A DNA stretch of 64,000 nucleotides from assembly GCA_016182185.1 (NCBI GenBank), contig JACOXU010000001.1, positions 15,700-79,699 of the forward strand, given 5' to 3'. The translations under genes and the position numbers were made by a program. This DNA comes from Candidatus Levyibacteriota bacterium. Its GTDB lineage: Bacteria; Patescibacteriota; Microgenomatia; Levybacterales; UBA12049. Of this stretch, positions 17,928 to 40,602 are shown piece by piece (positions within the stretch are counted from its first letter, which is position 1; every line of letters begins with the position of its first letter). Under the pieces are notes generated by a model. The model saw only the letters and a list, made by a program, of their open reading frames with translations, ran no database searches and was not told the DNA's origin.

Positions 17928-18539
17928 ATGAAGGATTTTAGTCAACTGGAAAATAAAAAAGTTATAGAAAAAACTATTAAAGCGCTGAGGAAAAATGGAA
18001 TCGAAGCAGAAGTTGTAGAGAATAGTGAGATGGCCAAAAAAAGAATTTATGAACTTATTCCCGAAGGCTCAGAAGTCATGATAATGTCCTCAGTTACTCT
18101 TATTAAGACAGGAATTGCCAAAGAATTAAATGAATCAGGAAGATATGATTCTGTCAAGAAAAAACTCGCCTCAATGAATAGAAAAACTCAAGGCATTGAA
18201 ATGCAAAGAATAGGCGGCGCTCCACAATATGCATTGGGCAGTGTCCATGCAGTAACGCAAGACGGCAGACTTTTGATAGCATCAAACACAGGTAGTCAGT
18301 TAGGAGCATATACTTACGGCTCAGAGCATGTTATTTGGGTTGTAGGAGCACAAAAGATTGTAGAAGATTTAGATGAAGGCATGAAAAGAGTTTATGAATA
18401 TGTTCTTCCCCTTGAAAGTGAAAGGATGAAAAGGCTTTACAATATGCCAAGTAATGTTAGTAAGCTTTTGATATTCAATAAAGAAATAGTTCCCAATAGG
18501 GTCCGTCTTATATTTATCAACGAGAAAATCGGCTACTAA
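17928..18539 (+). CDS. LUD-domain (YkgG/LutC-like, DUF162) protein
   Basis: About 200 aa with a conserved SVHAVTQDGRLLIASNTGSQ...IWVVGAQKIV core. Paralog of 27090-27710. Confidence 0.65.
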   Translation: MKDFSQLENKKVIEKTIKALRKNGIEAEVVENSEMAKKRIYELIPEGSEVMIMSSVTLIKTGIAKELNESGRYDSVKKKLASMNRKTQGIEMQRIGGAPQYALGSVHAVTQDGRLLIASNTGSQLGAYTYGSEHVIWVVGAQKIVEDLDEGMKRVYEYVLPLESERMKRLYNMPSNVSKLLIFNKEIVPNRVRLIFINEKIGY

Positions 18540-20052: not shown

Positions 20053-20107
20053 AAGCTCTTTTCCATTAGTATAACAATTGCTATACTGAATGTGTACCAT
20101 TTTTTCA

Positions 20108-21007
20108 ATGAATAATACTCCAACAGTAACAGTTAATCAGATGCGAGAAGTTGACAGACTCATGGTTGATGAAATTGGAGTTTCAATACTCATGATGATG
20201 GAAAACGCGTCAAGAAATATTGCGATACTTTCTCGCAAATTGCTTGGAGGAAACGTAAAAAAGAAACATATCGTAGTTCTCTGTGGTAAAGGCAATAACG
20301 GCGGTGATGGGTTAAGTGCTGCTCGGCATTTGATAAATTTTGGGGGAACGGTAACTTGCATACTTTCCGAGCACAAAGAAAATCTAAGAAGTAATGCTCG
20401 TGTGCAATTTAACGTTTTAGAAAACATAGATGCCGCGATCATAGAATTCTCGGATGAACAAAAAGGACTCATTCAAGAAAAGATAAAAAATTCAGATTTG
20501 ATAATTGATGCGCTCCTTGGGTACAACCTGAAAGGCAATCCGGAGGAGCCTATCGCTACGCTTATTCGCTTAGCAAATAAGTCACGAAAGCCAATTCTTG
20601 CTGTTGATATACCTTCTGGTCTTTCAGGAGATGCGGGAGAAGCTTCCGAGCCAACCATAAAAGCTACCGCAACGCTTACTCTTGCACTTCCAAAAGTCGG
20701 CTTGCAGAAAGATATGGCAAAAGAATATGTGGGAGAATTGTATTTAGCTGATCTGTCTGTACCGGCTGTTGTTTATAGAAAACTTGGTATTGATGTCCCA
20801 ATCTTATTTGAATTTGTTGGTCAAACAATACAGGTGATCGGTGAAGTAATGATTGGTATCACAGCCATTATGGTTCATAGACGAGTATGGAAAGAGCATA
20901 AAATTAACCCCCTTGTTTACAAAGAGATGCAGCGAGAGCAAATTATAGGCATTTTGGGAATTGTTTTATTAGTTGCAGGATATTTTATACAAATATTATG
21001 GAATTAA
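20108..21007 (+). CDS. NAD(P)H-hydrate epimerase (YjeF N-terminal domain) with an unusual C-terminal two-TM extension
   Basis: VLCGKGNNGGDGLSAARHL YjeF_N signature. The last ~60 aa are two hydrophobic helices (VIGEVMIGITAIMV; IIGILGIVLLVAGYFIQILW). There is no YjeF_C dehydratase domain. Confidence 0.7.
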   Translation: MNNTPTVTVNQMREVDRLMVDEIGVSILMMMENASRNIAILSRKLLGGNVKKKHIVVLCGKGNNGGDGLSAARHLINFGGTVTCILSEHKENLRSNARVQFNVLENIDAAIIEFSDEQKGLIQEKIKNSDLIIDALLGYNLKGNPEEPIATLIRLANKSRKPILAVDIPSGLSGDAGEASEPTIKATATLTLALPKVGLQKDMAKEYVGELYLADLSVPAVVYRKLGIDVPILFEFVGQTIQVIGEVMIGITAIMVHRRVWKEHKINPLVYKEMQREQIIGILGIVLLVAGYFIQILWN

Positions 21008-21369
21008 TTTTTGTCTATAATGCAGATTCAGGGTTTTTTAATAGCATTAAAGATCTAATTCATAAATCTGTATCACCAAAAACATATGGATGTAATCTTT
21101 GCGGACTCACCTTTAGTGGGGCTTCAATGAAACAAGAATGGAGAGAATTCCTAGATAGTCTTCCGATAAGGGCTACGTTTTTGCATAAAGATGAATTTAC
21201 AAAGCAATACCCAAAATACGCGATGATAACTTATCCAGTTGTATTCAAAAAAGAGAACGGAATACTCAAAGGATTTATTTATACTGATGAGATAAATCAA
21301 CAAAAGACACTTGAAACGCTTCAAAAACTCGTACGAGACAAGATGCAAGCCCACGAGTCTAGGGCTTGA
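20998..21369 (+). CDS. hypothetical protein (123 aa)
   Basis: Contains a GCNLCGLT C-x2-C element; no recognised family. Confidence 0.4.
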   Translation: MELIFVYNADSGFFNSIKDLIHKSVSPKTYGCNLCGLTFSGASMKQEWREFLDSLPIRATFLHKDEFTKQYPKYAMITYPVVFKKENGILKGFIYTDEINQQKTLETLQKLVRDKMQAHESRA

Positions 21370-21892
21370 TAAAACTTTTTTCTCCAGCTCTTATTGCAGC
21401 AGGTAAGATGTTTTCTCCTGGAGTGATAGGACAATCCCATTGGTCATTATAAGAACTGTAGGGATTGTAGGCATAATTAAAATCAATTACTAATTTATCT
21501 CCTTTTTTAGGAATTTGTAACATCCGGCCATTTTTATAAGTTTCTTTACCGGTAGTTTGATCTCTAAACAGTAAGTAATACTGAAACTGTTCCCGCTCTG
21601 GATCTTCAAAAACTATAGCATCTACATTTTGGCCTTCAACATTAAACATAACTTTACCGGCTCTTAAATAGACTTGCTCATCTCCACCCGTAGTTTTAAT
21701 AACAACTTTTTTACCAACATCCGAAATATTCTTATCCAATTCCAGCTCAAAACTTAAACCTGGATTCGGCGGAAAATATTTTAATCCGGTAAAAGTTTCC
21801 TTCTGATCTTCAGTTAAAGGAGACTCAATATTTTCTCTCCAAGCTCTATCCTTCTGTTTTCTAAATTCTAATAGTTTTTCTTTACTGTACAT
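21359..21892 (-). CDS. DUF1684-like protein
   Basis: GLKYFPPNP...DFNYAYNPYS... pattern resembling DUF1684. It is the last gene of the co-directional redox block. Confidence 0.5.
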   Translation of the reverse strand: MYSKEKLLEFRKQKDRAWRENIESPLTEDQKETFTGLKYFPPNPGLSFELELDKNISDVGKKVVIKTTGGDEQVYLRAGKVMFNVEGQNVDAIVFEDPEREQFQYYLLFRDQTTGKETYKNGRMLQIPKKGDKLVIDFNYAYNPYSSYNDQWDCPITPGENILPAAIRAGEKSFIKP

Positions 21893-21895
21893 AAT

Positions 21896-24283
21896 CTATT
21901 TTTTACTCCTTACATTGTGTCCACCGAACTCATGACGTAAAGCCGAGACAACCTGACCGGTATATGAGGGTTTTCCTTGAGATTTTTTTCTAAACTCGAC
22001 TGCCCCCTCAATAATTTCTACTGGTACGTCCATTTCTCTTGCTGTTTCAACAGTCCATTTCCCTTCGCCGCTTTGAGATACTTTTCCAGAACAACATTCT
22101 TGGGTATTTAGATCATCGCCAAACTTGGCATACGCATCTTTAAGCCATCCGACAAGACGAGAAGTAATAACCGAACCGTGATTGTAAAGATCGGCAACGG
22201 AATACAAATCAAGTGAAAAAGGAGACTTTTTAAGAATCTCAAATCCTTCACCAATTGACTGCATCATACCGTACTCGATCCCGTTATGTACCATTTTTAC
22301 GAAATGTCCAGCGCTGGCATTGCCCATATAGCCGTATCCATCTTTAATCGATAAATCTCGGAATAAAGGCTCATGTCTTTCATAAAGTTCTTTTTTACCT
22401 CCAACCATAATACAAGCACCATTGAGCGCACCATCCGGACCACCTGAAACTCCAACGTCCAAGAAATTAATTCCACTTTTGTCTAGGTCTTTTGAGCGAC
22501 GGATAGAGTCTTTATAAGGTGAATTACCACCGTCTATAATAGTGTCTCCTTTTTCAAGAAGAGGTACAAGCTCGTTTAAAACTTCGTCAACTGCCTGGTA
22601 AGATGCCATTAGCCAAATTGTGCGGGGGTTTTTAAGTTTTTCAACCAGTTCTTCCAGAGAATGGGTGCCAAGAATCCCTTCAGACTCATAAACCTTGGTT
22701 ACCTCGTAAGTCCTGTTATAACCGTACACCTTCCATCCTTTTGAAACTAATTGTTTCGCCAGATTTGCCCCCATTTTCCCAAGACCTATAATCCCTATTT
22801 CGTTTATTTTTACCTTTCCTTTTTTGATCATATTTCCCCTCGCGCTTTTATCTAATTCAGGGGCTGGAGTTGTGTCCGGTTTGTATTTCAAAAGCGGAGC
22901 AAGATTTTCCTTCCATGCCTCAATGACAGGGTCTGCAAATTTCCACTGAGCTTCAACTTCATTTTGAGAAATAAAAAGCGATTGATCAGCATGTATAGCG
23001 TGATAAAGAACCTTTGCGTATTCTTCAACATATTGTACTTTGGTTTGCTTTTTGTATAAAAAGAATGAAAAAGTTCTTTCCTCAAGCACTCGTTCAAACC
23101 CCGGTTTTTTAGTCCAGAAATGAATTACTATTTCATCCCTTGGTTCAAGGCGAAAAACTATACGATTTGGTGTATGCTTGCGGATTTCACACAAGTGGCA
23201 CACTTTTGGATGTTTTAATGTTAAGACAATTTCTTTTCGCACCTCTCCCATACGCTTACCTGCTGAAAGTGTTATCGATACACCTTTCCATTTTGGATGA
23301 AGAAGTTCAGTTTTAAGCGCAAAATATGTTTCCGTATTGGAGTTAGGTGTAACGTCTTGAATCTCTTTGTAGCCTTTATATTGCGCTCGGAATGTGTTCT
23401 TTGTTAAAATTTCCCTTCTCCACGGCAAAAGAGCCTCAAGGATTTTTGCTCTGGTTTTTCTGATGCCTGTTTCTTCTTCGTTTGATGGATATTCCATAGT
23501 GAGCGCAGCAAGCATTGAGAGAAGATGATTTTGTCCCACATCCCGCAAAGCTCCAACCTGATCATAAAAGCTTCCTCTATCTTCAACGCCTATTTTTTCA
23601 TGAAGCTGCAGATCAATGCTGTCGATGGTTGAATTATCCCAAATGTTCTCAAAGAGATTATTGGAAAATCGAAAATTTTCTATTCCCTGAACTATTTCTT
23701 TAAAAAGGTAGTGATCAATGCGGTAAATTTGCTCTTCCTTAAAATATGAAGAGAGAAGTGTCTGAAGCTTTCTTGCCGTTGCAAGATTGGTACCAAACGG
23801 TTTTTCAATAAGAATTCTGCTCCAGCCGAGTTTTCCTCCACAAGGGATGTTTAATTTCACTGCTGCAAGGTTTTTGAAAATCAAATCATAATTTATTGGC
23901 GGAACTGCCAGATAAAAAAGCTTATTAGCACAAATTCCCCATAAATTTTCTGTTTCGCTAATTTTGTTGACTAGAGCCTGATATGCTTTTTCATCTTCAA
24001 AAGTGCCATTCTGATAAGAAAAGGTCACAAAAAATTTCGAGAATTTCTCGCTTGTTACGTTTTCCCCGCTGCGTTTTTTAACCGAATCGAAAACATAGTC
24101 TTTAAATTCTTGAGCAGAAAAATCTCTTCTTGAAAAGCCTATAACGGAAATGTTATCGGGCAAAAGGTTCTGCTCGAAGAGGTGCCAGAGAGAAGGAATA
24201 ATTTTTTTTGCCGCCAGGTCTCCCGTTACGCCAAATATTACAAGAATTGTCGGTATTTCTTTTGATATTTCCTTTGATTCCAT
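21896..24283 (-). CDS. fused glucose-6-phosphate 1-dehydrogenase / 6-phosphogluconate dehydrogenase (decarboxylating)
   Basis: N-terminal half: G6PD motifs GVTGDLAAKKIIPSL (dinucleotide-binding) and RIDHYLFKE (G6PD signature RIDHYLGKE). C-terminal ~300 aa: 6PGDH motifs IGIIGLGKMGANLA, GGNSPYKDSIRR, GVSGGPDGALNG, GHFVKMVHNGIEYG, GEGKWT. Single uninterrupted ORF of 808 aa; the start is probably the Met at MESKEIS. Confidence 0.85.
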   Translation of the reverse strand: MESKEISKEIPTILVIFGVTGDLAAKKIIPSLWHLFEQNLLPDNISVIGFSRRDFSAQEFKDYVFDSVKKRSGENVTSEKFSKFFVTFSYQNGTFEDEKAYQALVNKISETENLWGICANKLFYLAVPPINYDLIFKNLAAVKLNIPCGGKLGWSRILIEKPFGTNLATARKLQTLLSSYFKEEQIYRIDHYLFKEIVQGIENFRFSNNLFENIWDNSTIDSIDLQLHEKIGVEDRGSFYDQVGALRDVGQNHLLSMLAALTMEYPSNEEETGIRKTRAKILEALLPWRREILTKNTFRAQYKGYKEIQDVTPNSNTETYFALKTELLHPKWKGVSITLSAGKRMGEVRKEIVLTLKHPKVCHLCEIRKHTPNRIVFRLEPRDEIVIHFWTKKPGFERVLEERTFSFFLYKKQTKVQYVEEYAKVLYHAIHADQSLFISQNEVEAQWKFADPVIEAWKENLAPLLKYKPDTTPAPELDKSARGNMIKKGKVKINEIGIIGLGKMGANLAKQLVSKGWKVYGYNRTYEVTKVYESEGILGTHSLEELVEKLKNPRTIWLMASYQAVDEVLNELVPLLEKGDTIIDGGNSPYKDSIRRSKDLDKSGINFLDVGVSGGPDGALNGACIMVGGKKELYERHEPLFRDLSIKDGYGYMGNASAGHFVKMVHNGIEYGMMQSIGEGFEILKKSPFSLDLYSVADLYNHGSVITSRLVGWLKDAYAKFGDDLNTQECCSGKVSQSGEGKWTVETAREMDVPVEIIEGAVEFRKKSQGKPSYTGQVVSALRHEFGGHNVRSKK

Positions 24284-24288
24284 AATTA

Positions 24289-25638
24289 TTATTCGATTGC
24301 AAAAAATGCCCTTTGTAACCATTCTGGTAAAGCTGGGTGAATATAAACAGAATTTGTAATTGCTTTTACAGTTCCATTTGCCTTCATGGCAACAATTACT
24401 TCATGAATTAGGGTAGATGCTTCATGACCTACGATATGAGCTCCAAGAATTTTTTCTCCATTCTTATCAGTTAGAACTTTTGCGAGTCCATTTTCTTGTA
24501 ATGCTCCACCCATACCGGTATCTTTGAGCTCTGCTCTCCCTACTTTATAAGCTGTACCTTCTTTTTTAAGCTCTTGCTCTGTTTTACCAACTCCACCAAC
24601 CTGAGGAGATGAAAAAACCGCATGACCTATTGCAAAGGGATTAAATGGTACTTTTTTATCAGTAAAAGCGTTTCTAATTGAAAATCCAACTTGGTCATTG
24701 GCGGTATGTCGAAACGGCAAGATACCAAGTATATCCCCAAACGCCCAGATACCATCAACATTTGTCTCAAGGTACTCATTAACCTTAATATACCCATTGT
24801 CATTCACCTCAACTCCTGTTGTCTTAACATCTAAGATGTCGGTATTGGGAACTCTGCCAGTAACAACCAGCAATTGATCACTCTCAAGTTTTCTTTCACT
24901 GTCTTTTAAGGTAATAATGAAATTGCCGTTTTGGTAGGAAACCGACTCTGCCTGTGTATTAAAGAGAATTTCATATTTTTTAGAAAACTTCTTGGTGAAC
25001 CATTGGGCTATTTCTTCATCTTCATCACTCAACATGAGATTTCCCCTGACCAAAATTGTAATTTTAGTTCCTAAAGCTCCATAAAAATGTGCAAGCTCTG
25101 CTGCTATATAACCGCCGCCTATAATTATTAAATGTTTTGGTTGTTTCTCAAGCCTTAATGCTTTTGTACTATCTAGAAATGGTGTATTTTTCAAACCCGG
25201 AATTGGGGGTATGGAAGGCCTGGTGCCTCCGACAATAAATACTTTATCAGCCTCAATCTGACCATCTCCTACCTGCATTTGTTTTGGACCAATAAACTTA
25301 CCGCGCATTTTATAGAGGATAGGGTTTCCGTTTTCTCTGACAGACTTTTCAATACCGGCCGAATCAGTATCTACCACCTCAGAGACTCGTTTTACGATCG
25401 ATGCAAAATCTATGCTTTCTATCTTGCTTTTAATCCCAAATTTTCCGCTATTTTTAATAGCTTCAGCAACATCCGATGAGTGGATCAACATCTTTGAGGG
25501 TATGCAACCTCGATTTAGACACGTTCCACCCAGCGGGCCTTCTTCGACTATTGCAACAGACATTTCTTTTTCTGCAGCAAATGATGCTACTTCGAGTCCG
25601 GCTCCTGATCCCACAACTAAAACATCAAACTTTTTCAT
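24289..25638 (-). CDS. class I flavoprotein pyridine nucleotide-disulfide oxidoreductase (glutathione reductase / Lpd-like)
   Basis: FAD-binding GSGAGL; redox-active GGTCLNRGCIPSK; a second Rossmann GGGYIAAEL with a VRG element; a C-terminal dimerisation domain with HPALPE. Confidence 0.85.
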   Translation of the reverse strand: MKKFDVLVVGSGAGLEVASFAAEKEMSVAIVEEGPLGGTCLNRGCIPSKMLIHSSDVAEAIKNSGKFGIKSKIESIDFASIVKRVSEVVDTDSAGIEKSVRENGNPILYKMRGKFIGPKQMQVGDGQIEADKVFIVGGTRPSIPPIPGLKNTPFLDSTKALRLEKQPKHLIIIGGGYIAAELAHFYGALGTKITILVRGNLMLSDEDEEIAQWFTKKFSKKYEILFNTQAESVSYQNGNFIITLKDSERKLESDQLLVVTGRVPNTDILDVKTTGVEVNDNGYIKVNEYLETNVDGIWAFGDILGILPFRHTANDQVGFSIRNAFTDKKVPFNPFAIGHAVFSSPQVGGVGKTEQELKKEGTAYKVGRAELKDTGMGGALQENGLAKVLTDKNGEKILGAHIVGHEASTLIHEVIVAMKANGTVKAITNSVYIHPALPEWLQRAFFAIE

Positions 25639-25675
25639 ATTACCTCTTCTAGTTTATCAACAAATTGCTACTTTT

Positions 25676-25876
25676 TTAACTGCTCGTACTGTGTTGTTGT
25701 CCATGTGTTGCTAAATCTTGTGGAGATTTTGCTTTCATGCCGCATTTAGAGCATATTATCGAATGTTCTTCTTGCTCATCTTTATTACTGTGCATTTGTT
25801 TTGCGTGGGAATCCATTTCATCTTGAGAATCAAACTGACCTCCGCACATAGGACATTTTAATTTATTGCTATCCAT
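25676..25876 (-). CDS. small protein with two C2H2-type zinc-finger-like motifs (66 aa)
   Basis: CPMCGGQFDSQDEMDSHAKQMH and CSKCGMKAKSPQDLATHGQQH both fit C-x2-C-x12-H-x3/4-H. A strong GGAGGTGA RBS lies 8 nt upstream. Confidence 0.6.
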   Translation of the reverse strand: MDSNKLKCPMCGGQFDSQDEMDSHAKQMHSNKDEQEEHSIICSKCGMKAKSPQDLATHGQQHSTSS

Positions 25877-25917
25877 TTTACTTCACCTCCTTTTATGTTC
25901 GTAAATTGTTAGAATGC

Positions 25918-26166
25918 TTATAAACCTAGCACTTTATCTAAAGCTTCTTTATTAAATCCTAAAATCGCAACTTCCTTTCCATCGTCTTTTACAATATGTG
26001 TGCAGGGTACTCCCATAGATTTGCAAATATGCATTGCCTCTGCTGCCTTATCTGGATTATAGTCAAGAACTATATCCTCAAAAGAAATATTCTTCTCTTT
26101 TAAGTAGCTCTTCAGCATATGACAATAGGGACAAGCTGTTGTCGAGTAAACTTTTATTTTAGCCAT
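25918..26166 (-). CDS. glutaredoxin (CPYC active site)
   Basis: KVYSTTACPYCHMLKSYL is a classic Grx CPYC motif and fold; about 82 aa starting from the MAKIKVY ATG. The ORF-track start at 26175 is a GTG. Confidence 0.8.
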   Translation of the reverse strand: MAKIKVYSTTACPYCHMLKSYLKEKNISFEDIVLDYNPDKAAEAMHICKSMGVPCTHIVKDDGKEVAILGFNKEALDKVLGL

Positions 26167-26461
26167 TTCTATCACCTGCCTTCATTTTATCCTTATGCAT
26201 TATTATTAGATTTTTGTTTGCGTCAAGCGCCTTTTTCAGCTCTTCATTTGAAGGCTCAACAAGAACCTCGCCATTAGGAAACAAAATAGTCGGAATCGAC
26301 TGCATTCCGCGATTTATCTCTTCAACTTCTGCTGCTGCACTTGGATCTTTATCTATATTTATGTATTCGTACATAACACCTCTTTGGTCAAGAAAGAATC
26401 TAGATCTATGGCAATCGGCGCACCAGTCAGCTCCATAAAATTTTATATGCTTCGAACTCAT
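26159..26461 (-). CDS. glutaredoxin-like / thioredoxin-fold protein (CADC active site)
   Basis: IKFYGADWCADCHRSRFFL is a Cx2C motif in the thioredoxin-fold position, with a later ...SIPTILFPNG cis-Pro-type region. Confidence 0.7.
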   Translation of the reverse strand: MSSKHIKFYGADWCADCHRSRFFLDQRGVMYEYINIDKDPSAAAEVEEINRGMQSIPTILFPNGEVLVEPSNEELKKALDANKNLIIMHKDKMKAGDRNG

Positions 26462-26493
26462 ATCAGTTTATATATGTAATAAGATAACATCGA

Positions 26494-26646
26494 TTAATTG
26501 TGATTGTGATCTTGTTCACGGTTTTCATTTTTTTCTTTTTTATGACTTGGGTCAGTACAGTTTTTATCTGTACATTTCTCAATCACACCGATCGCCTTTC
26601 CCATTCTGCACATCGTACAATTATCGTGTTTTCCATGTCCCATCAT
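26494..26646 (-). CDS. unannotated 50-aa Cys/His-rich small protein
   Basis: Not in the ORF track because it is under 60 aa. A GGAGGTG RBS 7 nt upstream, then ATG ATG; translation MMGHGKHDNCTMCRMGKAIGVIEKCTDKNCTDPSHKKEKNENREQDHNHN (4 Cys, 5 His). It fills the gap between the CADC-Grx gene and the 117-aa membrane protein gene on the same strand. Confidence 0.45.
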   Translation of the reverse strand: MMGHGKHDNCTMCRMGKAIGVIEKCTDKNCTDPSHKKEKNENREQDHNHN

Positions 26647-26721
26647 ATAATTTCACCTCCTTATTTGTGGTTTAATCATACAAATAATTTTATCTTTGTT
26701 CTGTCGCCCGGACGACATGTT

Positions 26722-27075
26722 TTATTTATTCTCTTTAATTATCTTACCGAGTCTAACAGGCATCATAATTAATGCAATCAAAATTCCAAAAAGTAGAACA
26801 AATATTCCGGTTAATATGTTACCAACTCCGACAAGTTTAAGTCTTAAAAGTTCCGATGGGTAATTTTGTATTTGTACTAACTGGGAGTTGAGTTCTGATC
26901 CTGTTTCTGCCGCGTCCCTGATTTCTTTACTTTGAATAAAGTATTCGGACTGAAGCACATGAAATTTTGCCTCCTCAACAGTTACTCTCTGATGCATTTG
27001 TATCCCAATTCCTGCAAATATAATACCTGCAATCATAAACACTGCCATCATTCCCATCATCATCGTCTTCATCAT
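26722..27075 (-). CDS. small membrane protein with a Met-rich N-terminus (117 aa)
   Basis: N-terminus MMKTMMMGMMAVFMIAGIIF; two TM helices (N- and C-terminal); GGAGGTGA RBS. Confidence 0.5.
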   Translation of the reverse strand: MMKTMMMGMMAVFMIAGIIFAGIGIQMHQRVTVEEAKFHVLQSEYFIQSKEIRDAAETGSELNSQLVQIQNYPSELLRLKLVGVGNILTGIFVLLFGILIALIMMPVRLGKIIKENK

Positions 27076-27089
27076 TTTTATCTCACCTC

Positions 27090-27710
27090 CTAAAATCCTA
27101 AGTTCTCTTTAATCAAAACTATCGTTATTCTTCCGGGTATCATTTCTTTGTTGATTATAAGGATTTTATTAACCCCACTTCGCATACCATAAGCTTTTTG
27201 TGCCCTCGCATCTTCGAGAGGATAGGAATATTCGTAAATTCTTCTTAAACCTTCTTGAAGGTTTTTAACAATTTTTTGCGTTCCTACTATAAAAATAACT
27301 TTTTCTGCGGAATAAACTTCTGTTGAAAGCTGGCTGCCTGTTGCCGATGCAATCAAAAGCTGTCCTTCCTCTGTTATAGCATGAACAGATCCCACTACAA
27401 ACTCAGGAGCGGCTCCAATCTTTGCCATCTCACGGCTTTGCGTGCTTCTATCCATTTTCATGAGTTTTTGCCTCACGGAATCATATTTCCCAGATTCGTT
27501 TATTTCCTTTGCAAGGCTTATAATTTCCCCAGTCCGGGACGTGGCGGTGAAAACTTCTGCTCCTGTTGGTAGCATTCCTAGAACTTCCTCTTTTGCCTCT
27601 TTGCCATTTTTAACAACGAGTGTTTTTATTCCGTTTGCTTCAAGTGCTTTTACGGCTTTTGCGATTCTCTGGTTATCGGCTAATTTATTAAAATTTTGAT
27701 TTGATTTCAT
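27090..27710 (-). CDS. LUD-domain (YkgG/LutC-like) protein, paralog
   Basis: SVHAITEEGQLLIASATGSQ...IFIVGTQKIV. Clearly homologous to 17928-18539. Confidence 0.65.
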   Translation of the reverse strand: MKSNQNFNKLADNQRIAKAVKALEANGIKTLVVKNGKEAKEEVLGMLPTGAEVFTATSRTGEIISLAKEINESGKYDSVRQKLMKMDRSTQSREMAKIGAAPEFVVGSVHAITEEGQLLIASATGSQLSTEVYSAEKVIFIVGTQKIVKNLQEGLRRIYEYSYPLEDARAQKAYGMRSGVNKILIINKEMIPGRITIVLIKENLGF

Positions 27711-27800
27711 AAGATTATTCTTTCCTTAATCAAAGTATAGTCGAGTTTTTAATTTGATTCTGTCGTTTGTAAGACAAAATAGTCTTTTTTTCAAATACAG

Positions 27801-29462
27801 TTAATTTGAGTAAAGTTCGGTATCCGGGTGGAACGCGGCCCAGGCAAACCAGAATAACCTGATGGGAATTATTTCTTCTTGGGTTTCAAGATTGATAGTT
27901 TTAATTTGTCCTGAATCAAGTTTTTCGAGTCGTAGGTTTATATCACCAATTTGATCCTCAATTATTTTTCGGTTGTCAAACACGCTTTCAGGATATGCTT
28001 TTGATAATCCATCCAGCTCAATCCCATAAACGACAGTCTTGATCTGAAGACTTTTATTTAATCCCTTTACTCCAAACAGTAGTTGGTCATCCTGCTCATA
28101 AGTGCCATAAGGATATTGGTCGTAATCCCTGCTGTGGTCTGTTTCCCGTGATAGAACTTGAGTATTAGGATGTTTTCGTTTCCATTCGCCCCATGTGGTT
28201 GTTACAATTGGTACCTGTTTTAGCTTTTCATTTCGACGGGCCGCTTCACCAACAATAGCCTCCCCTGTTATTTGTTGCCAGAGATTCCCTTCGTATCTGT
28301 CATACATAACAAGATCCGAATTATGCAGTTTTCCGGATACACCAAATTCCGTGATAACTCCGTCAACTTTTCTTTCAAATGCAAGAGCGGAACCGCAAAG
28401 CGGACAAAAAGTAATCGCAACTGGATCACCTGCAGCAATATCATTTACAATCTCATGCCAATTTAGGATTCGTTGAGGATAGGCTCGTTGTACCCCCATA
28501 TAATCAATTGCAAATACAACGTCATCATCCCGTAACCAACTAGCCTGCGTTGCTGATTCAAATTTAGGTTTATCAATCGATGGAATACAATCTTTTCCAC
28601 CAAAACAGCCTTGGAGCAAATCGCTTTTATCCACCTTAGCACCTGTGAAATCATTGGCGAGGGATACATCACGAACTACTGTTTCACCAGGTTTAGCTTT
28701 TTGCGTCTTTTTTCCACTTAAAGCCCTAAGTTGCTTGTCAATATTCACGCTTTTTTCAAACGTAGTTGCAAGCTGTGTCCATGAAGCAGGTAAATTTGCA
28801 AGCGTCCATGCCTGCAGTATTCTATCTGCTCCGGTCCATAAAAATAAAGCTGTGCCCAATATAATAATCCCAAAGATTTGTCTAATTTTTTGGTTGTTTG
28901 CTTTAACAAAACCAAGTCTTGCGGAAGCCGCGCGTCCGCCTTTTGCGATAAAATAGAGAGGAACGGCTGTTCCTAAAGCATAAGAAAATACTATTAAAAC
29001 AGATCCGAATGAGAGTGAATTTACTGCTGCGAGTGTTGCAACAGCCGCAACAACTGGACCAATACAGGGAGTCCACACAACTCCAAGACTTACACCTGTA
29101 ACAAGTCCCCCTCCGAATCCGCTACCTTGGTTTTGCACTGGACGGACTTGCCAGAAACGCTCAATTAGTATCAACGCCTTTTCCCAAATAATAGGAAAGA
29201 CCATGCTTAAACCAAAAATGACTAACAGTATTACAGCAATATTTCGAATTGTATCTGCAGGAATTCCAAAAACTTTTACAACTGTTGCAAGAAGAAGTGC
29301 GGCAATCGTAAAACTCACAACAAGCCCTATTATAACACCTCTTATTCGCCATATTTTTCCTTCAATTCCGCTTGCTAAAATAATGGGCAGAATGGGAAGA
29401 ACACATGGTGAAAAAACAGTTAAAACTCCTGACACAAATGCAATAGGTAAAAGCAAAAACAT
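27801..29462 (-). CDS. CcdA/DsbD-type thiol-disulfide transporter fused to a C-terminal DUF3179-like domain
   Basis: N-terminal ~240 aa: polytopic membrane domain with VFSPCVLPILP (CcdA/DsbD beta signature) and a second Cys (VWTPCIGP). C-terminal ~300 aa: ITFCPLCGS...FGVSGKL..DLVMYDR..GNLWQQ pattern typical of DUF3179. Confidence 0.75.
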   Translation of the reverse strand: MFLLLPIAFVSGVLTVFSPCVLPILPIILASGIEGKIWRIRGVIIGLVVSFTIAALLLATVVKVFGIPADTIRNIAVILLVIFGLSMVFPIIWEKALILIERFWQVRPVQNQGSGFGGGLVTGVSLGVVWTPCIGPVVAAVATLAAVNSLSFGSVLIVFSYALGTAVPLYFIAKGGRAASARLGFVKANNQKIRQIFGIIILGTALFLWTGADRILQAWTLANLPASWTQLATTFEKSVNIDKQLRALSGKKTQKAKPGETVVRDVSLANDFTGAKVDKSDLLQGCFGGKDCIPSIDKPKFESATQASWLRDDDVVFAIDYMGVQRAYPQRILNWHEIVNDIAAGDPVAITFCPLCGSALAFERKVDGVITEFGVSGKLHNSDLVMYDRYEGNLWQQITGEAIVGEAARRNEKLKQVPIVTTTWGEWKRKHPNTQVLSRETDHSRDYDQYPYGTYEQDDQLLFGVKGLNKSLQIKTVVYGIELDGLSKAYPESVFDNRKIIEDQIGDINLRLEKLDSGQIKTINLETQEEIIPIRLFWFAWAAFHPDTELYSN

Positions 29463-29463
29463 A

Positions 29464-29925
29464 TTAGTTTATTTGTGCAACTAAAGTATCAAAATCTCCG
29501 CCAATCCATCGTTTTATTTCGTTTCCCTGACTGTCAAGATAAACCATTGTATGCTGTTGTGCTATACCATACTTTTTCTTATTGAAGCTGTCGTGGTCGT
29601 AGTCAATCTTAAGTACTGTTAGGTTTTCGGGAAGCGATGCGCTTTTCTCTCTTAATTCTTTGTCTAAAGCAGAACATGTATTACACCATGCAGTTGCTGC
29701 AAAAAACAATACGGTATTTCCGTTTCCATATGCTTGCGTTAAGGTTCCTTCGGAATAATCAAAATAATGTGGGGAAATGGGTTGAAAATCAGCAAGTACT
29801 CTTTGCTGTGGGACTGTTTTATTTACAAAAAAATTATTAAAAAGAACTCCCGCAAAAATTACCCCCAGTACTATTATGGCAGTTGTAATTCCATTTAATT
29901 TCGTATTTTTTATTTTTAAAGTCAT
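29464..29925 (-). CDS. membrane-anchored thioredoxin-like protein (TlpA/ResA-like), WCNTC
   Basis: N-terminal TM anchor; Trx fold with active site WCNTC. Confidence 0.8.
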   Translation of the reverse strand: MTLKIKNTKLNGITTAIIVLGVIFAGVLFNNFFVNKTVPQQRVLADFQPISPHYFDYSEGTLTQAYGNGNTVLFFAATAWCNTCSALDKELREKSASLPENLTVLKIDYDHDSFNKKKYGIAQQHTMVYLDSQGNEIKRWIGGDFDTLVAQIN

Positions 29926-30365
29926 ATTAGTTGTTGTTTTATTGTTTCAATGCCGCCACCTATCCAATTATGTACTTCGTTCCCTTCGCTATCGACTTGT
30001 ACAAGTGTATGCTGTTGAACAATATTATATTTTTGTTTTAGCTCTTTTTCGGTATCGTAGTTTACCTGTAAAATAGTCACATCGTCAGGCAATTCACCAC
30101 TTCTTTCTTTAAGTTCCTCATCAAGGACTTTGCATGTTGGACACCATGAAGCCCAAAAATAGAGAACGGGGCGACCATTTGTCTTTCCAGCGGCAAGGTT
30201 CTCTTCTGAGTATTTAAGATAATGTGGGGCGATTTCTCCAGAATTGTCTTGAGTAGCTGTTATACTTCTTGTAGTATCTTTGGTCTTAGATTGCGTAAGA
30301 AAAACACCTCCTAAAATCACAATAAGAAGTATTATCACAATAGCAATTATTTTCCCGATCTTCAT
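29922..30365 (-). CDS. membrane-anchored thioredoxin-like protein (TlpA/ResA-like), WCPTC
   Basis: N-terminal TM anchor; active site WCPTC. Paralog of 29464-29925. Confidence 0.8.
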   Translation of the reverse strand: MKIGKIIAIVIILLIVILGGVFLTQSKTKDTTRSITATQDNSGEIAPHYLKYSEENLAAGKTNGRPVLYFWASWCPTCKVLDEELKERSGELPDDVTILQVNYDTEKELKQKYNIVQQHTLVQVDSEGNEVHNWIGGGIETIKQQLI

Positions 30366-30445
30366 ACTTTAAGCATACAGTAAACACTCTTCGGTATACC
30401 ACTCATAAAATTCTCAAAATTCTAGAATACTTCTGAAAGGGTTTG

Positions 30446-30847
30446 TTAATTAAGATTCGTAAGCAATGCTTCTACCCCTTTACCTCCGCTATTCCATCTC
30501 GTAATTTCCTTTCCCTGACTATCAACTTGAATAAATGTATCCTGCATGGTGATAGCATACTTTTTCTTCATGGCAGAATCATTATCATAGTCGACTTTAA
30601 GAATAGTTACATCTCCCGGAACTTCATCAAAATTTGCCTTAAAATTCCTGTCTGCTGCCTGACATGAAGGACACCAGGCAAGCGCCGCAAAGAAAAGAAC
30701 AGCACAACCATTGTTTGCCGTTGCTTTGGAAAGAGAATTTGATGAATAGTCAACATAGCGAGTTGCTATCGCAGAATCATTGGAGCCCATTGCAGAATCG
30801 TCTTCCATCATTTCCCCAGCTTCCATAAATGATCCGTCAGTCCACAT
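30446..30847 (-). CDS. thioredoxin-like protein (TlpA-like paralog), WCPSC, no N-terminal anchor
   Basis: Trx domain homologous to the two upstream paralogs (…VLFFAALAWCPSC…) but with an acidic 25-aa N-terminus instead of a TM helix. There is no in-frame upstream start before a stop at 30908. Confidence 0.6.
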   Translation of the reverse strand: MWTDGSFMEAGEMMEDDSAMGSNDSAIATRYVDYSSNSLSKATANNGCAVLFFAALAWCPSCQAADRNFKANFDEVPGDVTILKVDYDNDSAMKKKYAITMQDTFIQVDSQGKEITRWNSGGKGVEALLTNLN

Positions 30848-31394: not shown

Positions 31395-32057
31395 TTAAGA
31401 GGACAGTTGCTCTAGGTGTGAGGAATTAAACTGGAGCATTTTTTTTGAACGCTTAATATGCCCCTTTTTCTCTAGTTGGTTAATAAGGGTTGTTACAGTT
31501 TGTCGTGAGATGCCAAGCATCTGGGCAAGTTCTTCATGTGTAAATTTATCTGATATCTCCATATAATCTTCAGATTTTGGCTTACCTAGGCTCAAAAGTA
31601 ACTTAACTAATCTTTGAAATGCATTATCGGCGGCCACTGAGGACATTCGCTTCTCAACTGAAAGAAGTCTATTAAAAAGCTGCTTCATTAATTTTTCAGA
31701 TAGGTCCGGATACTGAGAGATTAGTGTAAAAAAATTGTTTTTTTCAAGAGAGCACACATATGAATCAACCGTTGCCTCCACAAATATCTCAGATGAACCC
31801 TCAGAGCCTAAATCTCCAAATAAACTTCCCGGACGCAGCCTTTCTATTATCGTCTTTTTACCTGATGGGGTGAGCTGAAACAATTCCACTTGGCCAGTTT
31901 TTACAAGAAATACTTTATCTCTGTCTCCAGGTTCAAAAATTACCTCTCTTTTACTATATTCCTTCATAGCAAACAGAGACTCTATTTTATGAAGTTTATC
32001 TTTCGCTAAGTCTTTAAACAAATCGAGCTGTTGAATGTACCAAAGCTTCTTGTTCAT
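31395..32057 (-). CDS. Crp/Fnr-family transcriptional regulator
   Basis: N-terminal cNMP-binding-like beta-roll; C-terminal HTH (HEELAQMLGISRQTVTTLINQLEKKGHI). Confidence 0.85.
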   Translation of the reverse strand: MNKKLWYIQQLDLFKDLAKDKLHKIESLFAMKEYSKREVIFEPGDRDKVFLVKTGQVELFQLTPSGKKTIIERLRPGSLFGDLGSEGSSEIFVEATVDSYVCSLEKNNFFTLISQYPDLSEKLMKQLFNRLLSVEKRMSSVAADNAFQRLVKLLLSLGKPKSEDYMEISDKFTHEELAQMLGISRQTVTTLINQLEKKGHIKRSKKMLQFNSSHLEQLSS

Positions 32058-37692: not shown

Positions 37693-39066
37693 TCAGACAC
37701 AGCAACTTAATTTAGAAATGTCCTTAGTAAAGGACAAGGCGGCAATTTTAATAGCCTCCGAAAGCGTCGGGAACATAGGTAAGGAATTTACCACGTCATC
37801 AATGGTATTTTTATTTTTAACTAACGACATCGCTTGAGCAATTAAATCACCTGCATTAGGAGCTAAAATATGCACCCCAAGAATTACTTTTGTCTCAGGG
37901 TGGATAACCATTTTTATTAAACCTTCCGTTCTGCCAATAATAAGAGCCTTTGGAACGTCTGCAAAAGAAACAGTCCGGCAAAGACACCTTCCTAACTGTT
38001 TCATTTCTTGTTCTTCAGTAAGTCCTACACCTGCGAGCTGTGGGTCAGTAAAGATAGTCCAAGGGACAGTATTGTAATCAATACTATTTTGAGTACCTTT
38101 AAGTGCATTTTCAGCAGCAAGCGTTCCCTCTCTGCCTGCTGTTGGTTCTTCTCTAATGGGTAGATTTGTCACATCGCCCACCGAAAAAATGTGTGGTTGA
38201 GATGATTGAAATTGAGGACTTACTTTTATCGCCTGTTTATCATCAATTTCTATATTAGCTTTATCAAGACCTAAGCCTTGTGTCTCATCGGCTGATACTT
38301 GTTCTTCTTTATTAGCGGTTATATAAGTCAGGACTTTCTTACCTCCTTCTTTACGTGCAGATTTAACTTGTACATTTGTTTTAATAGTTATGCCCTCTTT
38401 GGTAAGTATTTCGGCCAAACGATCAGTAAGTTCTCTTTCTGCCGGAGGGAAAATAGAGACATTCTTTTGTAAAACAGTTATTTTTGTTCCAAAACGAGAA
38501 TACATTTGTGCAAACTCCAATCCCAAAGGCCCCGCACCAACTACAATAAGTTCTTTGGGAAGATTTTTAATCTGTAAAGCCTCAATATGAGTCAAGTATC
38601 CAACTTCTTGTATATTCTCAATCGGTGGTACAGTTGCGGTCGATCCGGCTGCAATAATAAATTTCTTTGCTTGATATTTTTGTCCATTAACTTCAATCTC
38701 GTTAGGGGAAACAAAACTAGCTTTACCTTCTATGTGGGTAACATTTTCTAAACCATTTAAGACTTTCTCATACTTTTCAGCTCTAAGCTTTGCTACTAAA
38801 TCGAGTTCATGCTGAACAACTTGACTAAAATTAAAGTTTTTAACTTCTATATCAATCCCTGGAATATTGTGACTTTTAGCAAGATGCATTACTTCTCCTG
38901 CCCAAAGAAGCGTTTTAGAAGGAACACAACCAACGTTTACACAGGTTCCGCCTAGAGGAAGTCCCTGATTAACCATCAAAGTTTTTGCTCCAAGCTCATT
39001 GGCTTTAATAGCGGAAGCAAAAGCCCCTGCGCCTCCTCCGATAATGATTAAATCGTACTCATTCAT
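37693..39066 (-). CDS. mercuric reductase-like flavoprotein (MerA core without the N-terminal HMA domain)
   Basis: FAD motif IIGGGAGA; redox-active LGGTCVNVGCVPSK, identical to the MerA active-site signature; the C-terminus ends in ...KLSCCV, a Cys pair as in MerA ...QLSCCAG. Confidence 0.75.
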   Translation of the reverse strand: MNEYDLIIIGGGAGAFASAIKANELGAKTLMVNQGLPLGGTCVNVGCVPSKTLLWAGEVMHLAKSHNIPGIDIEVKNFNFSQVVQHELDLVAKLRAEKYEKVLNGLENVTHIEGKASFVSPNEIEVNGQKYQAKKFIIAAGSTATVPPIENIQEVGYLTHIEALQIKNLPKELIVVGAGPLGLEFAQMYSRFGTKITVLQKNVSIFPPAERELTDRLAEILTKEGITIKTNVQVKSARKEGGKKVLTYITANKEEQVSADETQGLGLDKANIEIDDKQAIKVSPQFQSSQPHIFSVGDVTNLPIREEPTAGREGTLAAENALKGTQNSIDYNTVPWTIFTDPQLAGVGLTEEQEMKQLGRCLCRTVSFADVPKALIIGRTEGLIKMVIHPETKVILGVHILAPNAGDLIAQAMSLVKNKNTIDDVVNSLPMFPTLSEAIKIAALSFTKDISKLSCCV

Positions 39067-39129: not shown

Positions 39130-40602
39130 TTATACCCCACATCCTGCTCCACCTTTTGTTTGGGGGATAAGATTTGGTATCTTGGCAATTTCTGTCTGTA
39201 CATTCTTGCCCCAGCCGCTACCTGTTGAGTAATCAGTACCCAACGCCACTTTTGGATCAACTTTGTCCCACTCTATGTTTTTAACAACCTTAAAATACAG
39301 GGCTGTTTGAATATAATTTTGTGGGAACCAAGAGGAATTGAAGGCGAGAGCCTCTTTGTAAAGTTCATCCTCGGAGAGTCCCTGTGATGCGCCAAGTTGC
39401 AGAAGTCCTAATAACGCTGATCCATGATTGCAGTCCTGAAAGAAAGTAGAGTTATTGCAACAGGGACGATAGGTGTTTTTGGCAATTTGAGTGACTAAAG
39501 CTTCTTGCTCTGGTGTCAATTCAACTATTCTGAATTTATTGAAATACGCTCCGCCATTTTCTTCCTTTCCTATATTCCAACCCCCAGTTGAAGCAAAGTT
39601 AAAAAGAGATTTTCCATTAACAGGACTATCTTTATTTGTTGACATATAGTTTGATAGTCCTAATGCCCAAAGAAGGTTAACGTAAGTGTTAGCGTTTTCT
39701 CTGGTGAGAAGAATAGGCCTATATGAAGATTGACTTAATATATCTTTCAGCTCGGGAGGCAATCCTCCGCGTTCTTTATAAATTTCTTCAAATTTACCCT
39801 GGTCAATAACGCCATTTTGTACCAATTCTACGACGCTATCCCCTAAGAAAATTTTGCTTTGAAAACCTTGTGCTGGCAAAACTTTAGCTACAACCTCGTC
39901 ATAAACTTTGTTTCCTGTTGAAGAAATGTTAGAGGTATTTAGTTTATTGTCGTTTGAGTTAAGAAGTGCTGTCTTATTAAAGAAGCTGAAAATTATTGGA
40001 TCAGTCTTAAGCATATTCCAGCCAATAAGTATCAAAACAGCAACCAATGCTAAAGAGGCTATAAGATAAGGTTTATCTTTTGCTCGATATGAAGTAGGGC
40101 GGGGAATCGGGCAAGTTTCATCGCCGCAACTTAAAGATTTTAACTCTCTTGTTGTTAACCAGACAGGAAGCGCCATTAAGGCAAAAGAAAGTGATTTTAG
40201 TTCTAAACCTTGCAGGGGGAAAGCTGCCAGCCCTCCGGCAATGCCAATAGCGGATAAAAGAACAGAACCGCAGACTGGACAAGCAGAGGCCGCCACCCCT
40301 ACTAATGCTCCTAAACTGCTTCCGCCTTGAACTTTGAGTCTGGGCGGTCCAAATTTCCTCCAGCGATAAACAAATAATGAGGCGTTAACGCCAAAAAGGA
40401 CAATAGTACCAAAAGTAAGAAGGATATATGACCATAAGTACACAGGCTGACTTTTGGTGTTGTTGATAAGATTATAAATACTTGAATTAAGGCTTAAGCT
40501 CCAATAGAAGATAAGCAGTAGAAGTAGAGAAGCCACCAGCCCGATTGAACCGTAAAATAAAAAGGTCAATAATTTTTTCTTAAATCTGTTAATTCTTCTC
40601 AT
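39130..40602 (-). CDS. Cys-containing polytopic membrane protein with a large extracytoplasmic C-terminal domain (candidate metal-ion transporter)
   Basis: About 5 TM helices in the first 190 aa. One carries ACPVCG; a loop carries SCGDETCP. The ~300-aa hydrophilic C-terminal domain has a PCCNNSTFFQDCNHG motif and ends GGAGCGV. It lies in an operon with the ArsR and MerA-like genes. Confidence 0.55.
   Translation of the reverse strand: MRRINRFKKKLLTFLFYGSIGLVASLLLLLIFYWSLSLNSSIYNLINNTKSQPVYLWSYILLTFGTIVLFGVNASLFVYRWRKFGPPRLKVQGGSSLGALVGVAASACPVCGSVLLSAIGIAGGLAAFPLQGLELKSLSFALMALPVWLTTRELKSLSCGDETCPIPRPTSYRAKDKPYLIASLALVAVLILIGWNMLKTDPIIFSFFNKTALLNSNDNKLNTSNISSTGNKVYDEVVAKVLPAQGFQSKIFLGDSVVELVQNGVIDQGKFEEIYKERGGLPPELKDILSQSSYRPILLTRENANTYVNLLWALGLSNYMSTNKDSPVNGKSLFNFASTGGWNIGKEENGGAYFNKFRIVELTPEQEALVTQIAKNTYRPCCNNSTFFQDCNHGSALLGLLQLGASQGLSEDELYKEALAFNSSWFPQNYIQTALYFKVVKNIEWDKVDPKVALGTDYSTGSGWGKNVQTEIAKIPNLIPQTKGGAGCGV

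Follow-up and report, generated by a model that had tools for sequence, protein, structure and literature searches.

Several fusions between oxidative pentose phosphate pathway (PPP) enzymes have been described. In one type, glucose-6-phosphate dehydrogenase (G6PD, encoded by zwf) is joined to 6-phosphogluconolactonase (6PGL); such G6PD::6PGL proteins, which include GluPho of Plasmodium, those of Giardia and Trichomonas, and vertebrate H6PD, arose independently several times (PMC3148214). In another, reported from the diatom Phaeodactylum tricornutum (protein 54663 / XP_002183714; Kroth 2008, PMC2173943; Stover 2011, PMC3148214), the partner of G6PD is 6-phosphogluconate dehydrogenase (6PGDH, encoded by gnd), and the fusion is thought to be the product of read-through of adjacent in-frame genes (PMC3148214). 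[quoted passage not shown] Here we analyze a member of this last group, a single gene for G6PD (Zwf) followed by 6PGDH (Gnd), in a 64,000-nucleotide (64-kb) stretch of a Candidatus Levyibacteriota genome (contig JACOXU010000001.1, positions 15,700 to 79,699), which we refer to as the window.

Like the G6PD::6PGL fusions, the window protein joins G6PD to another enzyme of the oxidative PPP. Their partner, however, is the lactonase (PF01182) of the consecutive step, whereas the window protein joins non-consecutive steps. It shares with the P. tricornutum fusion the joining of the first and third enzymes of the pathway, with the lactonase skipped; judged by its published description, the diatom protein differs in being eukaryotic and cytosolic, restricted to a single diatom lineage and derived from a disputed gene model. 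The diatom protein and the prokaryotic fusions (PMC2173943, PMC3148214, PMC11237513) also correct the original prediction made for this DNA, which took the known fusions to be of the G6PD-6PGL type. With the candidate-phyla group of PMC11237513 there is no difference in kind. The same two enzymes lie in one chain, both domains are complete, Zwf precedes Gnd and the arrangement recurs in independent genomes; the window protein is a Candidatus Levybacteria member of that group, to which the paper gives one sentence, without anatomy, residues, gene context or biochemistry. The same families also occur unfused, as a short-form gnd beside zwf: other Patescibacteria have zwf-gnd(-pgl) operons, and in Chloroflexota, Bacteroidota, Acidobacteriota and Betaproteobacteria the operons are gnd-zwf(-pgl). 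[quoted passage not shown]

JGI already names relatives of the window protein [quoted passage not shown]. Our literature search for a G6PD/6PGDH fusion in CPR/Patescibacteria found no dedicated study, and neither Jaffe 2020 nor Chaudhari 2021 mentions one. The fusion family is known, in the sense that it has been noted, named and deposited, and it is uncharacterised; it is no new discovery at the sequence level.

The gene occupies a minus-strand open reading frame (ORF), 21896-24322, that has no internal stop and comprises 808 codons counted from the earliest ATG. Its parts are as follows.

21896..24283, minus strand: fused Zwf-Gnd coding sequence in its most likely form, 795 amino acids (aa), with the stop codon at 21896-21898.

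24284..24322, minus strand: 13-codon N-terminal extension of the "808 aa" form, overlapping the 3' end of the upstream reductase gene.

22853..24241, minus strand: G6PD half, consisting of a Rossmann domain and a beta+alpha domain, residues 28-490 (Pfam, TIGR00871, PDB alignment and AlphaFold2 model).

22802..22852, minus strand: inter-domain linker of ~17 residues, 491-507, without Pfam coverage.

21902..22801, minus strand: short-form decarboxylating 6PGDH half, residues 508-807 (Pfam, TIGR00872 and alignment to short-form enzymes).

Residues are numbered on the 808-aa form unless given for the 795-aa form or for P0001, a deposited NCBI Candidatus Levybacteria protein encoded on a 617-kb contig.

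An open frame of 800 codons in DNA of 37-39 % GC cannot have arisen by chance. As the original prediction had proposed, a single unbroken ORF carries both enzymes: the stretch around the domain junction (22700-22960), where by its account a hidden stop or frameshift would refute the fusion, is in frame throughout, with zero stops. The same prediction gave a length of 808 aa together with the coordinates 21896-24283, which describe the same frame but two different starts. We prefer the ATG at 24283 (Met14 of the 808-aa ORF) because its 795-aa product is 100 % identical to P0001, because homologues measure 788-800 aa, and because this ATG is placed 5 nt past the TAA stop of the upstream reductase gene. 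The ATG at 24322 falls within that gene. None of the homologues compared has a counterpart of the 13-codon extension, which is probably not translated.

Judged from its sequence, the product is a real and conserved enzyme and very probably a bifunctional one. We consider it probable that this Zwf-Gnd fusion yields 2 NADPH per glucose-6-phosphate, that it originated by loss of a stop codon, and that its NADPH serves thiol-disulfide reduction.

Both domains of the G6PD half are near full length (Pfam G6PD_N, PF00479, residues 28-212; G6PD_C, PF02781, 217-490). The NCBIfam model TIGR00871 (zwf) matches residues 25-485 over its positions 3-467 of 486, with 439.8 bits against a cut-off of 400.6, and residues 23-477 align with solved G6PDs in the PDB. 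The two motifs named in the original prediction were found, GVTGDLAAKK at residues 31-40 and RIDHYLFKE at 201-209. The former contains the dinucleotide fingerprint GxxGDLA (G31-T-G34-D35-L36-A37); the latter is the RIDHYLGKE nonapeptide (R201-I-D203-H204-Y-L-F207-K208-E), with Gly to Phe at 207 as the sole deviation. The EKPxG motif reads E173-K174-P175-F-G177. The catalytic His motif D-x-x-Q-N-H reads D261-V-G-Q-N-H266, and this stretch aligns to "rdvmqnhl" of human G6PD; H266 is the counterpart of Leuconostoc mesenteroides His240 and human His263.

To assess conservation, we used the best 120 matches to the window protein in a collection of 5.8 billion proteins. Each of the 120 is a fusion that shares the four Pfam domains of the window protein; they measure ~770-830 aa and are 58-81 % identical to it. 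In the G6PD half, G31, G34, D35, L36, E173-K174-P175, D203-H204, K208 and H266 are invariant across the 120.

The same half has a Cys/His-rich loop within G6PD_C (residues 371-383; window 23176-23212). Its residues C375, C378 and H383 are invariant in 120/120 of these close fusions, and H371 is present in 112. Other CPR-type Zwf proteins, fused or split, read "HPxPCLCPPG..H" here, and sequence alignments revealed no such loop in PDB G6PDs or in the Zwf of phyla with the gene order gnd then zwf. The loop may bind a metal or serve as a redox switch.

The 6PGDH half contains every motif listed for it in the original prediction: GGNS (598-601), GVSGGPDGA (624-632), GHFVKMVHNGIEYG (672-685) and GEGKWT (752-757). 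Pfam recognizes NAD_binding_2 at residues 508-658 and 6PGD at 672-784, the latter over model positions 1-116 of 290 only. The short-form model TIGR00872 (gnd_rel, NCBIfam) matches residues 509-807 over its positions 3-298 of 299 and scores 357.2 bits, over its cut-off of 297.2; the alignment covers the catalytic residues, as the original prediction had anticipated. The long-form models TIGR00873 and NF006765 and related beta-hydroxyacid dehydrogenase models stay far under their cut-offs. The half aligns over its full length with short-chain (~300 aa) 6PGDHs (Gluconobacter oxydans 6xeq/10gw, 6vpb, Geobacter metallireducens 4e21, and Mycobacterium tuberculosis Gnd2 8ihe); residues 508-803 align end to end with 4e21, 6xeq/10gw and 6vpb, including the C-terminal R..FGGH tail. 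Like these enzymes it is without the duplicated helical domain of the 470-aa 6PGDHs, but they stand alone whereas it is fused. The catalytic and substrate-binding residues are intact: N600, S626, K676, H679, N680, E683 and R796 occur in 120/120 fusions and H802 in 119. Their respective counterparts in the sheep enzyme are N102, S128, K183, H186, N187, E190, R446 and H452.

Both halves also bear signatures of NADP use. Arg65 of the Zwf half, kept in 117 of the 120 fusions, lies at the position of the 2'-phosphate-binding Arg in NADP-using G6PDs. The Gnd half carries N536-R537-T538, and NADP-specific sheep 6PGDH has Asn32-Arg33-Thr34. Because NADP-type signatures are present in both halves, 2 NADPH per glucose-6-phosphate is the likely stoichiometry, and the original prediction of that yield was a reasonable one.

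One half might nevertheless depart from the textbook reaction, either because the Gnd half uses NAD+ or another hydroxy-acid, or because one half is a regulatory pseudo-enzyme. Several characterised short-form 6PGDHs prefer NAD+, TIGR00872 itself bears the name "NAD(+)-dependent", and the annotation of 8ihe (M. tuberculosis Gnd2) is likewise NAD+-dependent. The NAD-preferring short-form enzymes in our alignment have Asp at the first position of the N-R-T motif, as do 11 of the 120 fusions (Asp in place of Asn536), and the Gly to Phe change in the Zwf nonapeptide also fits a departure of this kind. The window protein, however, has the N-R-T motif typical of NADP-specific enzymes where the aligned short-chain 6PGDHs carry Asp, a substitution that suggests a different cofactor preference. 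The near-complete conservation of the catalytic and 6-phosphogluconate-binding residues and the low scores of the beta-hydroxyacid dehydrogenase models also speak against a changed reaction, which we regard as unlikely.

Between the two halves, the linker columns of the fusion alignment are unconserved, and the linkers of other fusions are 13-30 aa long with unrelated sequences. Functional residues on either side are invariant or nearly so, which indicates that both halves are under purifying selection. An AlphaFold2 model built from 26 fusions shows two confident domains, with a predicted local distance difference test score (pLDDT) mostly of 85-95, and a disordered linker (pLDDT ~28 at residues 479-493 of P0001, the 795-aa form). 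The predicted template modelling score of 0.58 is expected, because the model comprises two bodies without a fixed relative orientation. The top structural match found by Foldseek was L. mesenteroides G6PD (TM score 0.88, target-normalised), and no solved chain among the PDB sequence and structure matches covers both halves. In the model, the two halves are independent folds separated by a flexible linker of ~17 residues. An exposed, disordered linker would also suit a polyprotein that is cleaved after translation into Zwf and Gnd, in which case the fusion would couple expression only. The linkers share no conserved cleavage motif, though, and the neighbourhood contains no dedicated protease gene, so we consider cleavage very unlikely.

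A further concern, raised in the original prediction, was that assembly or sequencing might have created the single ORF artificially, with a lost stop or a frameshift joining neighbouring genes. Related CPR genomes do have adjacent but separate zwf and gnd genes, with a short spacer or an in-frame stop between them in loci L007, L017 and L023. Recurrence in independent assemblies refutes the concern. The 120 fusions derive from four independent data sources (NCBI, JGI, ENA and Logan assemblies) and belong to Levy-, Nomura-, Magasanik-, Wolfe-, Uhr-, Roizman- and Liptonbacteria, Paceibacterota and other lineages. Clustering at 50 % identity (1.84 billion representatives) gave ~13 full-length fused clusters, together with several junction-spanning fragments. 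We also scanned one genome per GTDB species, kept the best 80 loci and classified them with hidden Markov models (HMMs) of both halves; 20 of the 80, each from a species-representative genome, consist of a single Zwf-then-Gnd ORF. Linker lengths and sequences vary between lineages, which is not what one propagated error would produce, and the frame is unbroken through the junction in the window. We give an artefact practically no credence.

The recurrence bears on the description of the architecture as rare, too. It is rare across life, but within its own clade it is common, as the counts of 120/120 best matches and 20/80 loci illustrate. The 20 fused loci come from CPR lineages, some metagenome-assembled genomes (MAGs) labelled "Gammaproteobacteria", and Coriobacteriia, Actinomycetes and Slackia MAGs. 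In Chloroflexota, Chlorobi, Betaproteobacteria and other phyla, what looked like fusions turned out to be neighbouring genes in the order gnd then zwf, or spuriously long ORFs in DNA of high GC content (L064, L073). We also encountered another type of fusion, P0189 (735 aa), in which phosphoglucose isomerase (PF00342) is joined to a short-form 6PGDH.

The unfused loci point to how the fusion arose. Sixteen of the best 80 are CPR-type loci with separate zwf and gnd genes in that order, while in ~31, from other phyla, the order is reversed. The stop codons in the split CPR genes are genuine, and these genes start at an ATG of their own; they overlap or lie 3 to ~40 nt apart. Because sister CPR lineages keep zwf and gnd side by side as separate genes, ordered as in the fusion, a zwf-gnd operon that lost a stop codon is its probable source. 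A midpoint-rooted neighbor-joining tree of the Zwf half, without support values and no more than suggestive, unites the fused with the split CPR-type sequences in one clade, separate from the group with gnd before zwf; the Coriobacteriia fusions nest within the CPR-type clade beside the Levybacteria branch. These Coriobacteriia, Actinomycetes and Slackia fusions (L009-L012, on MAG contigs of up to 705 kb) are single ORFs in which gene and flanks alike have 65-70 % GC, and the match in GC indicates that the gene is resident in those genomes. Their nesting in the tree suggests gene transfer between Patescibacteria and Actinomycetota. The simplest history is a stop-loss fusion, with fission or renewed fusion now and then, and with transfer to Actinomycetota.

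These findings leave the lactonase, the enzyme of the intervening step, to be accounted for. The original prediction held that the fusion skips it, and indeed the protein has no match to PF01182 or TIGR01198; its only uncovered segment is the 17-residue linker. From Bacteroidota and Acidobacteriota loci we then took the genes that follow zwf, which themselves pass the TIGR01198 cut-off, and made from them a 6PGL HMM with which we searched all six-frame ORFs in the window and in each locus. Together with a Pfam scan of ~55 ORFs, this search found no DevB-type or beta-propeller lactonase in the window. A 6PGL-like gene adjoins zwf/gnd in 5 of the 16 split CPR-type loci (L017, L028, L031, L032 and L033), compared with 0/20 fused loci (Fisher p = 0.012). 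It is adjacent in 16 gnd-then-zwf loci, and in about half of the non-CPR-type unfused loci. The CPR copies are divergent, with TIGR01198 as their best match yet under its cut-off, and belong to a family with 527 matches. They are often unlinked from zwf/gnd (L085, L086) or lie beside a lone gnd (among L084-L086), so absence from the neighbourhood is no proof of absence from the genome, which may encode one elsewhere. No contig is common to the 120 listed of the 527 6PGL-like matches and the 120 fusions, an observation too weak to serve as evidence.

The skewed distribution and the empty window could mean that the fusion replaces the lactonase, with joined active sites in an oligomer, or a hydrolytic side-activity, making 6PGL dispensable; the apparent insufficiency of spontaneous hydrolysis in E. 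coli lends this idea some appeal. The linker, however, is short, unconserved and predicted to be disordered, and there is no extra domain. Moreover, 6PGDH needs the open-chain acid, so proximity alone leaves the hydrolysis step in place, and the CPR 6PGL-like genes, being often unlinked, could sit elsewhere in the genome. We consider such a replacement improbable.

The proposed use of the NADPH comes from the neighbouring genes, listed here.

24289..25638, minus strand: class-I flavoprotein (pyridine-nucleotide) disulfide reductase (Pfam Pyr_redox_2 and Pyr_redox_dim), 5 nt upstream of the fusion.

21359..21892, minus strand: DUF1684 gene (Pfam DUF1684), 3 nt past the fusion stop codon.

25918-26175 and 26159-26461, minus strand: two glutaredoxin-like genes (Pfam Glutaredoxin); in NCBIfam they come closest to the YruB and mycoredoxin types, and neither match reaches its cut-off.

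27801-29462, minus strand: DsbD/CcdA-type membrane thiol-electron transporter fused to DUF3179 (Pfam DsbD_TM, DUF3179).

29464-29925, 29922-30365 and 30446-30847, minus strand: three thioredoxin-like genes (Pfam Thioredoxin).

31395-32057: Crp/Fnr-type regulator, upstream of the redox island.

17928-18539 (plus strand) and 27090-27710 (minus strand): two paralogous stand-alone LUD-domain proteins in the flanking region, one of them inside the redox cluster.

20090..21007, plus strand: NAD(P)H-hydrate epimerase, a convergent neighbour (Pfam YjeF_N; TIGR00197 above cut-off).

37693-39066, minus strand: second flavoprotein disulfide reductase, matching MerA (mercury(II) reductase, TIGR02053) with 470.7 bits against a cut-off of 454.45.

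The fusion forms the centre of a tightly packed trio of genes and lies, as originally described, directly downstream of the disulfide reductase gene, with a 5-nt spacer before it and 3 nt between its stop and DUF1684. The trio belongs to a co-directional thiol-redox island on the minus strand (21359-30847), which also holds a small membrane protein and the LUD-domain gene between the glutaredoxin-like genes and the DsbD_TM-DUF3179 gene. The reductase itself scores under the cut-off of every specific NCBIfam model, including those for dihydrolipoyl dehydrogenase, mycothione, glutathione and MerA. The closest GTDB relative (L004, 60 % identity) also has a reductase, a glutaredoxin, a DsbD-DUF3179 homologue and a YjeF_N fragment next to the fusion, and the redox neighbourhood is partly kept in L057, L028, L017 and L008. 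Because the fusion is tightly packed within this co-directional cluster, we think it probable, from context only, that the enzyme here provides a thiol-disulfide reduction system with NADPH.

The DUF1684 protein matches the uncharacterised PDB chains 2lnu and 2lok. In Haloferax, the family has been proposed to act as a thiol-relay protein under an oxidative-stress regulator (PMC9426492); the window protein keeps only the second Cys of the Cx7C motif. We considered DUF1684 as a non-homologous lactonase and set this aside, as it has no hydrolase signature and the only published proposal for the family is the thiol relay. Just one further DUF1684 gene occurs in the 80 loci (L051, 8782-9288, minus strand, Anaerolineae); it directly follows zwf, and this locus likewise has no adjacent 6PGL-like gene, which may be coincidence. 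Among the other neighbours, the YjeF_N protein has a hydrophobic C-terminal extension of ~80 residues outside the domain model. The second reductase is without the N-terminal metal-binding domain, and the adjacent 490-aa ORF (39130-40602) has no Pfam match.

In the reading that we favour, the Zwf half would convert glucose-6-phosphate to 6-phosphoglucono-delta-lactone, using His266/Asp203 as the catalytic pair and binding substrate through His204 and Lys208. The lactone would exit the enzyme and become 6-phosphogluconate spontaneously or through a lactonase encoded elsewhere. The short-form Gnd half would then produce ribulose-5-phosphate by oxidative decarboxylation, with Lys676 as base and Glu683 as acid, for a predicted net yield of 2 NADPH per glucose-6-phosphate. 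The gene would have originated when the stop codon and short spacer of a zwf-gnd(-pgl) operon were lost in an ancestral Patescibacterium, and the fusion would ensure 1:1 co-expression in a minimal genome. Its role here would be to provide NADPH for thiol-disulfide reduction, in addition to supplying pentose.

We infer the catalysis, cofactor choice, co-transcription and physiological role in this proposal from the architecture, completeness, conservation, recurrence and gene context of the fusion, and several points weigh against it. The nonapeptide deviation is not a peculiarity of the window: Phe207 (window 23702-23704) is found in 118/120 close fusions, most other CPR-type Zwf proteins have Ala at this position, and Gly predominates, with a few exceptions, in the group with gnd before zwf. 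No 6PGL-like gene lies within ~6 kb of any of the 20 fused genes or in the window, and the authors of an E. coli delta-pgl study argue that intracellular spontaneous hydrolysis of the lactone cannot make up for a missing Pgl (bioRxiv 10.1101/2023.11.29.569206). Fusions at a greater distance do not share the redox neighbourhood, so the link to thiol redox may be lineage-specific. Co-transcription is deduced from gene spacing, and a promoter and terminator scan found sites no more numerous than in shuffled sequence. Finally, our literature search found no enzymatic, biochemical or structural study of any prokaryotic member.

A bolder combination of these observations is that the fused lineages lost a neighbouring lactonase and operate a lactonase-independent oxidative PPP. 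In this scheme, NADPH would flow along an electron chain specific to Patescibacteria, through the reductase and the glutaredoxin- and thioredoxin-like proteins to DsbD-DUF3179, C375/C378/H383 would form a redox or metal switch tying NADPH production to thiol status, and the fused enzyme would possibly be a mixed oligomer of dimer- and tetramer-forming halves. G6PDs assemble as dimers or tetramers, and short 6PGDHs as tetramers. We view this as a long shot.

The value of the fusion lies in its biochemistry rather than in novelty at the sequence level. As a natural, compact two-step NADPH regenerator it may be of use in biocatalysis. It is also a clean test case for the benefit of fusing non-consecutive pathway steps, and it sharpens the question of whether 6-phosphogluconolactonase is dispensable in Patescibacteria. 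These organisms have a minimal metabolism with few obvious routes to NADPH, and one gene giving 2 NADPH and a pentose phosphate per hexose phosphate is probably a main supplier of their reducing power.

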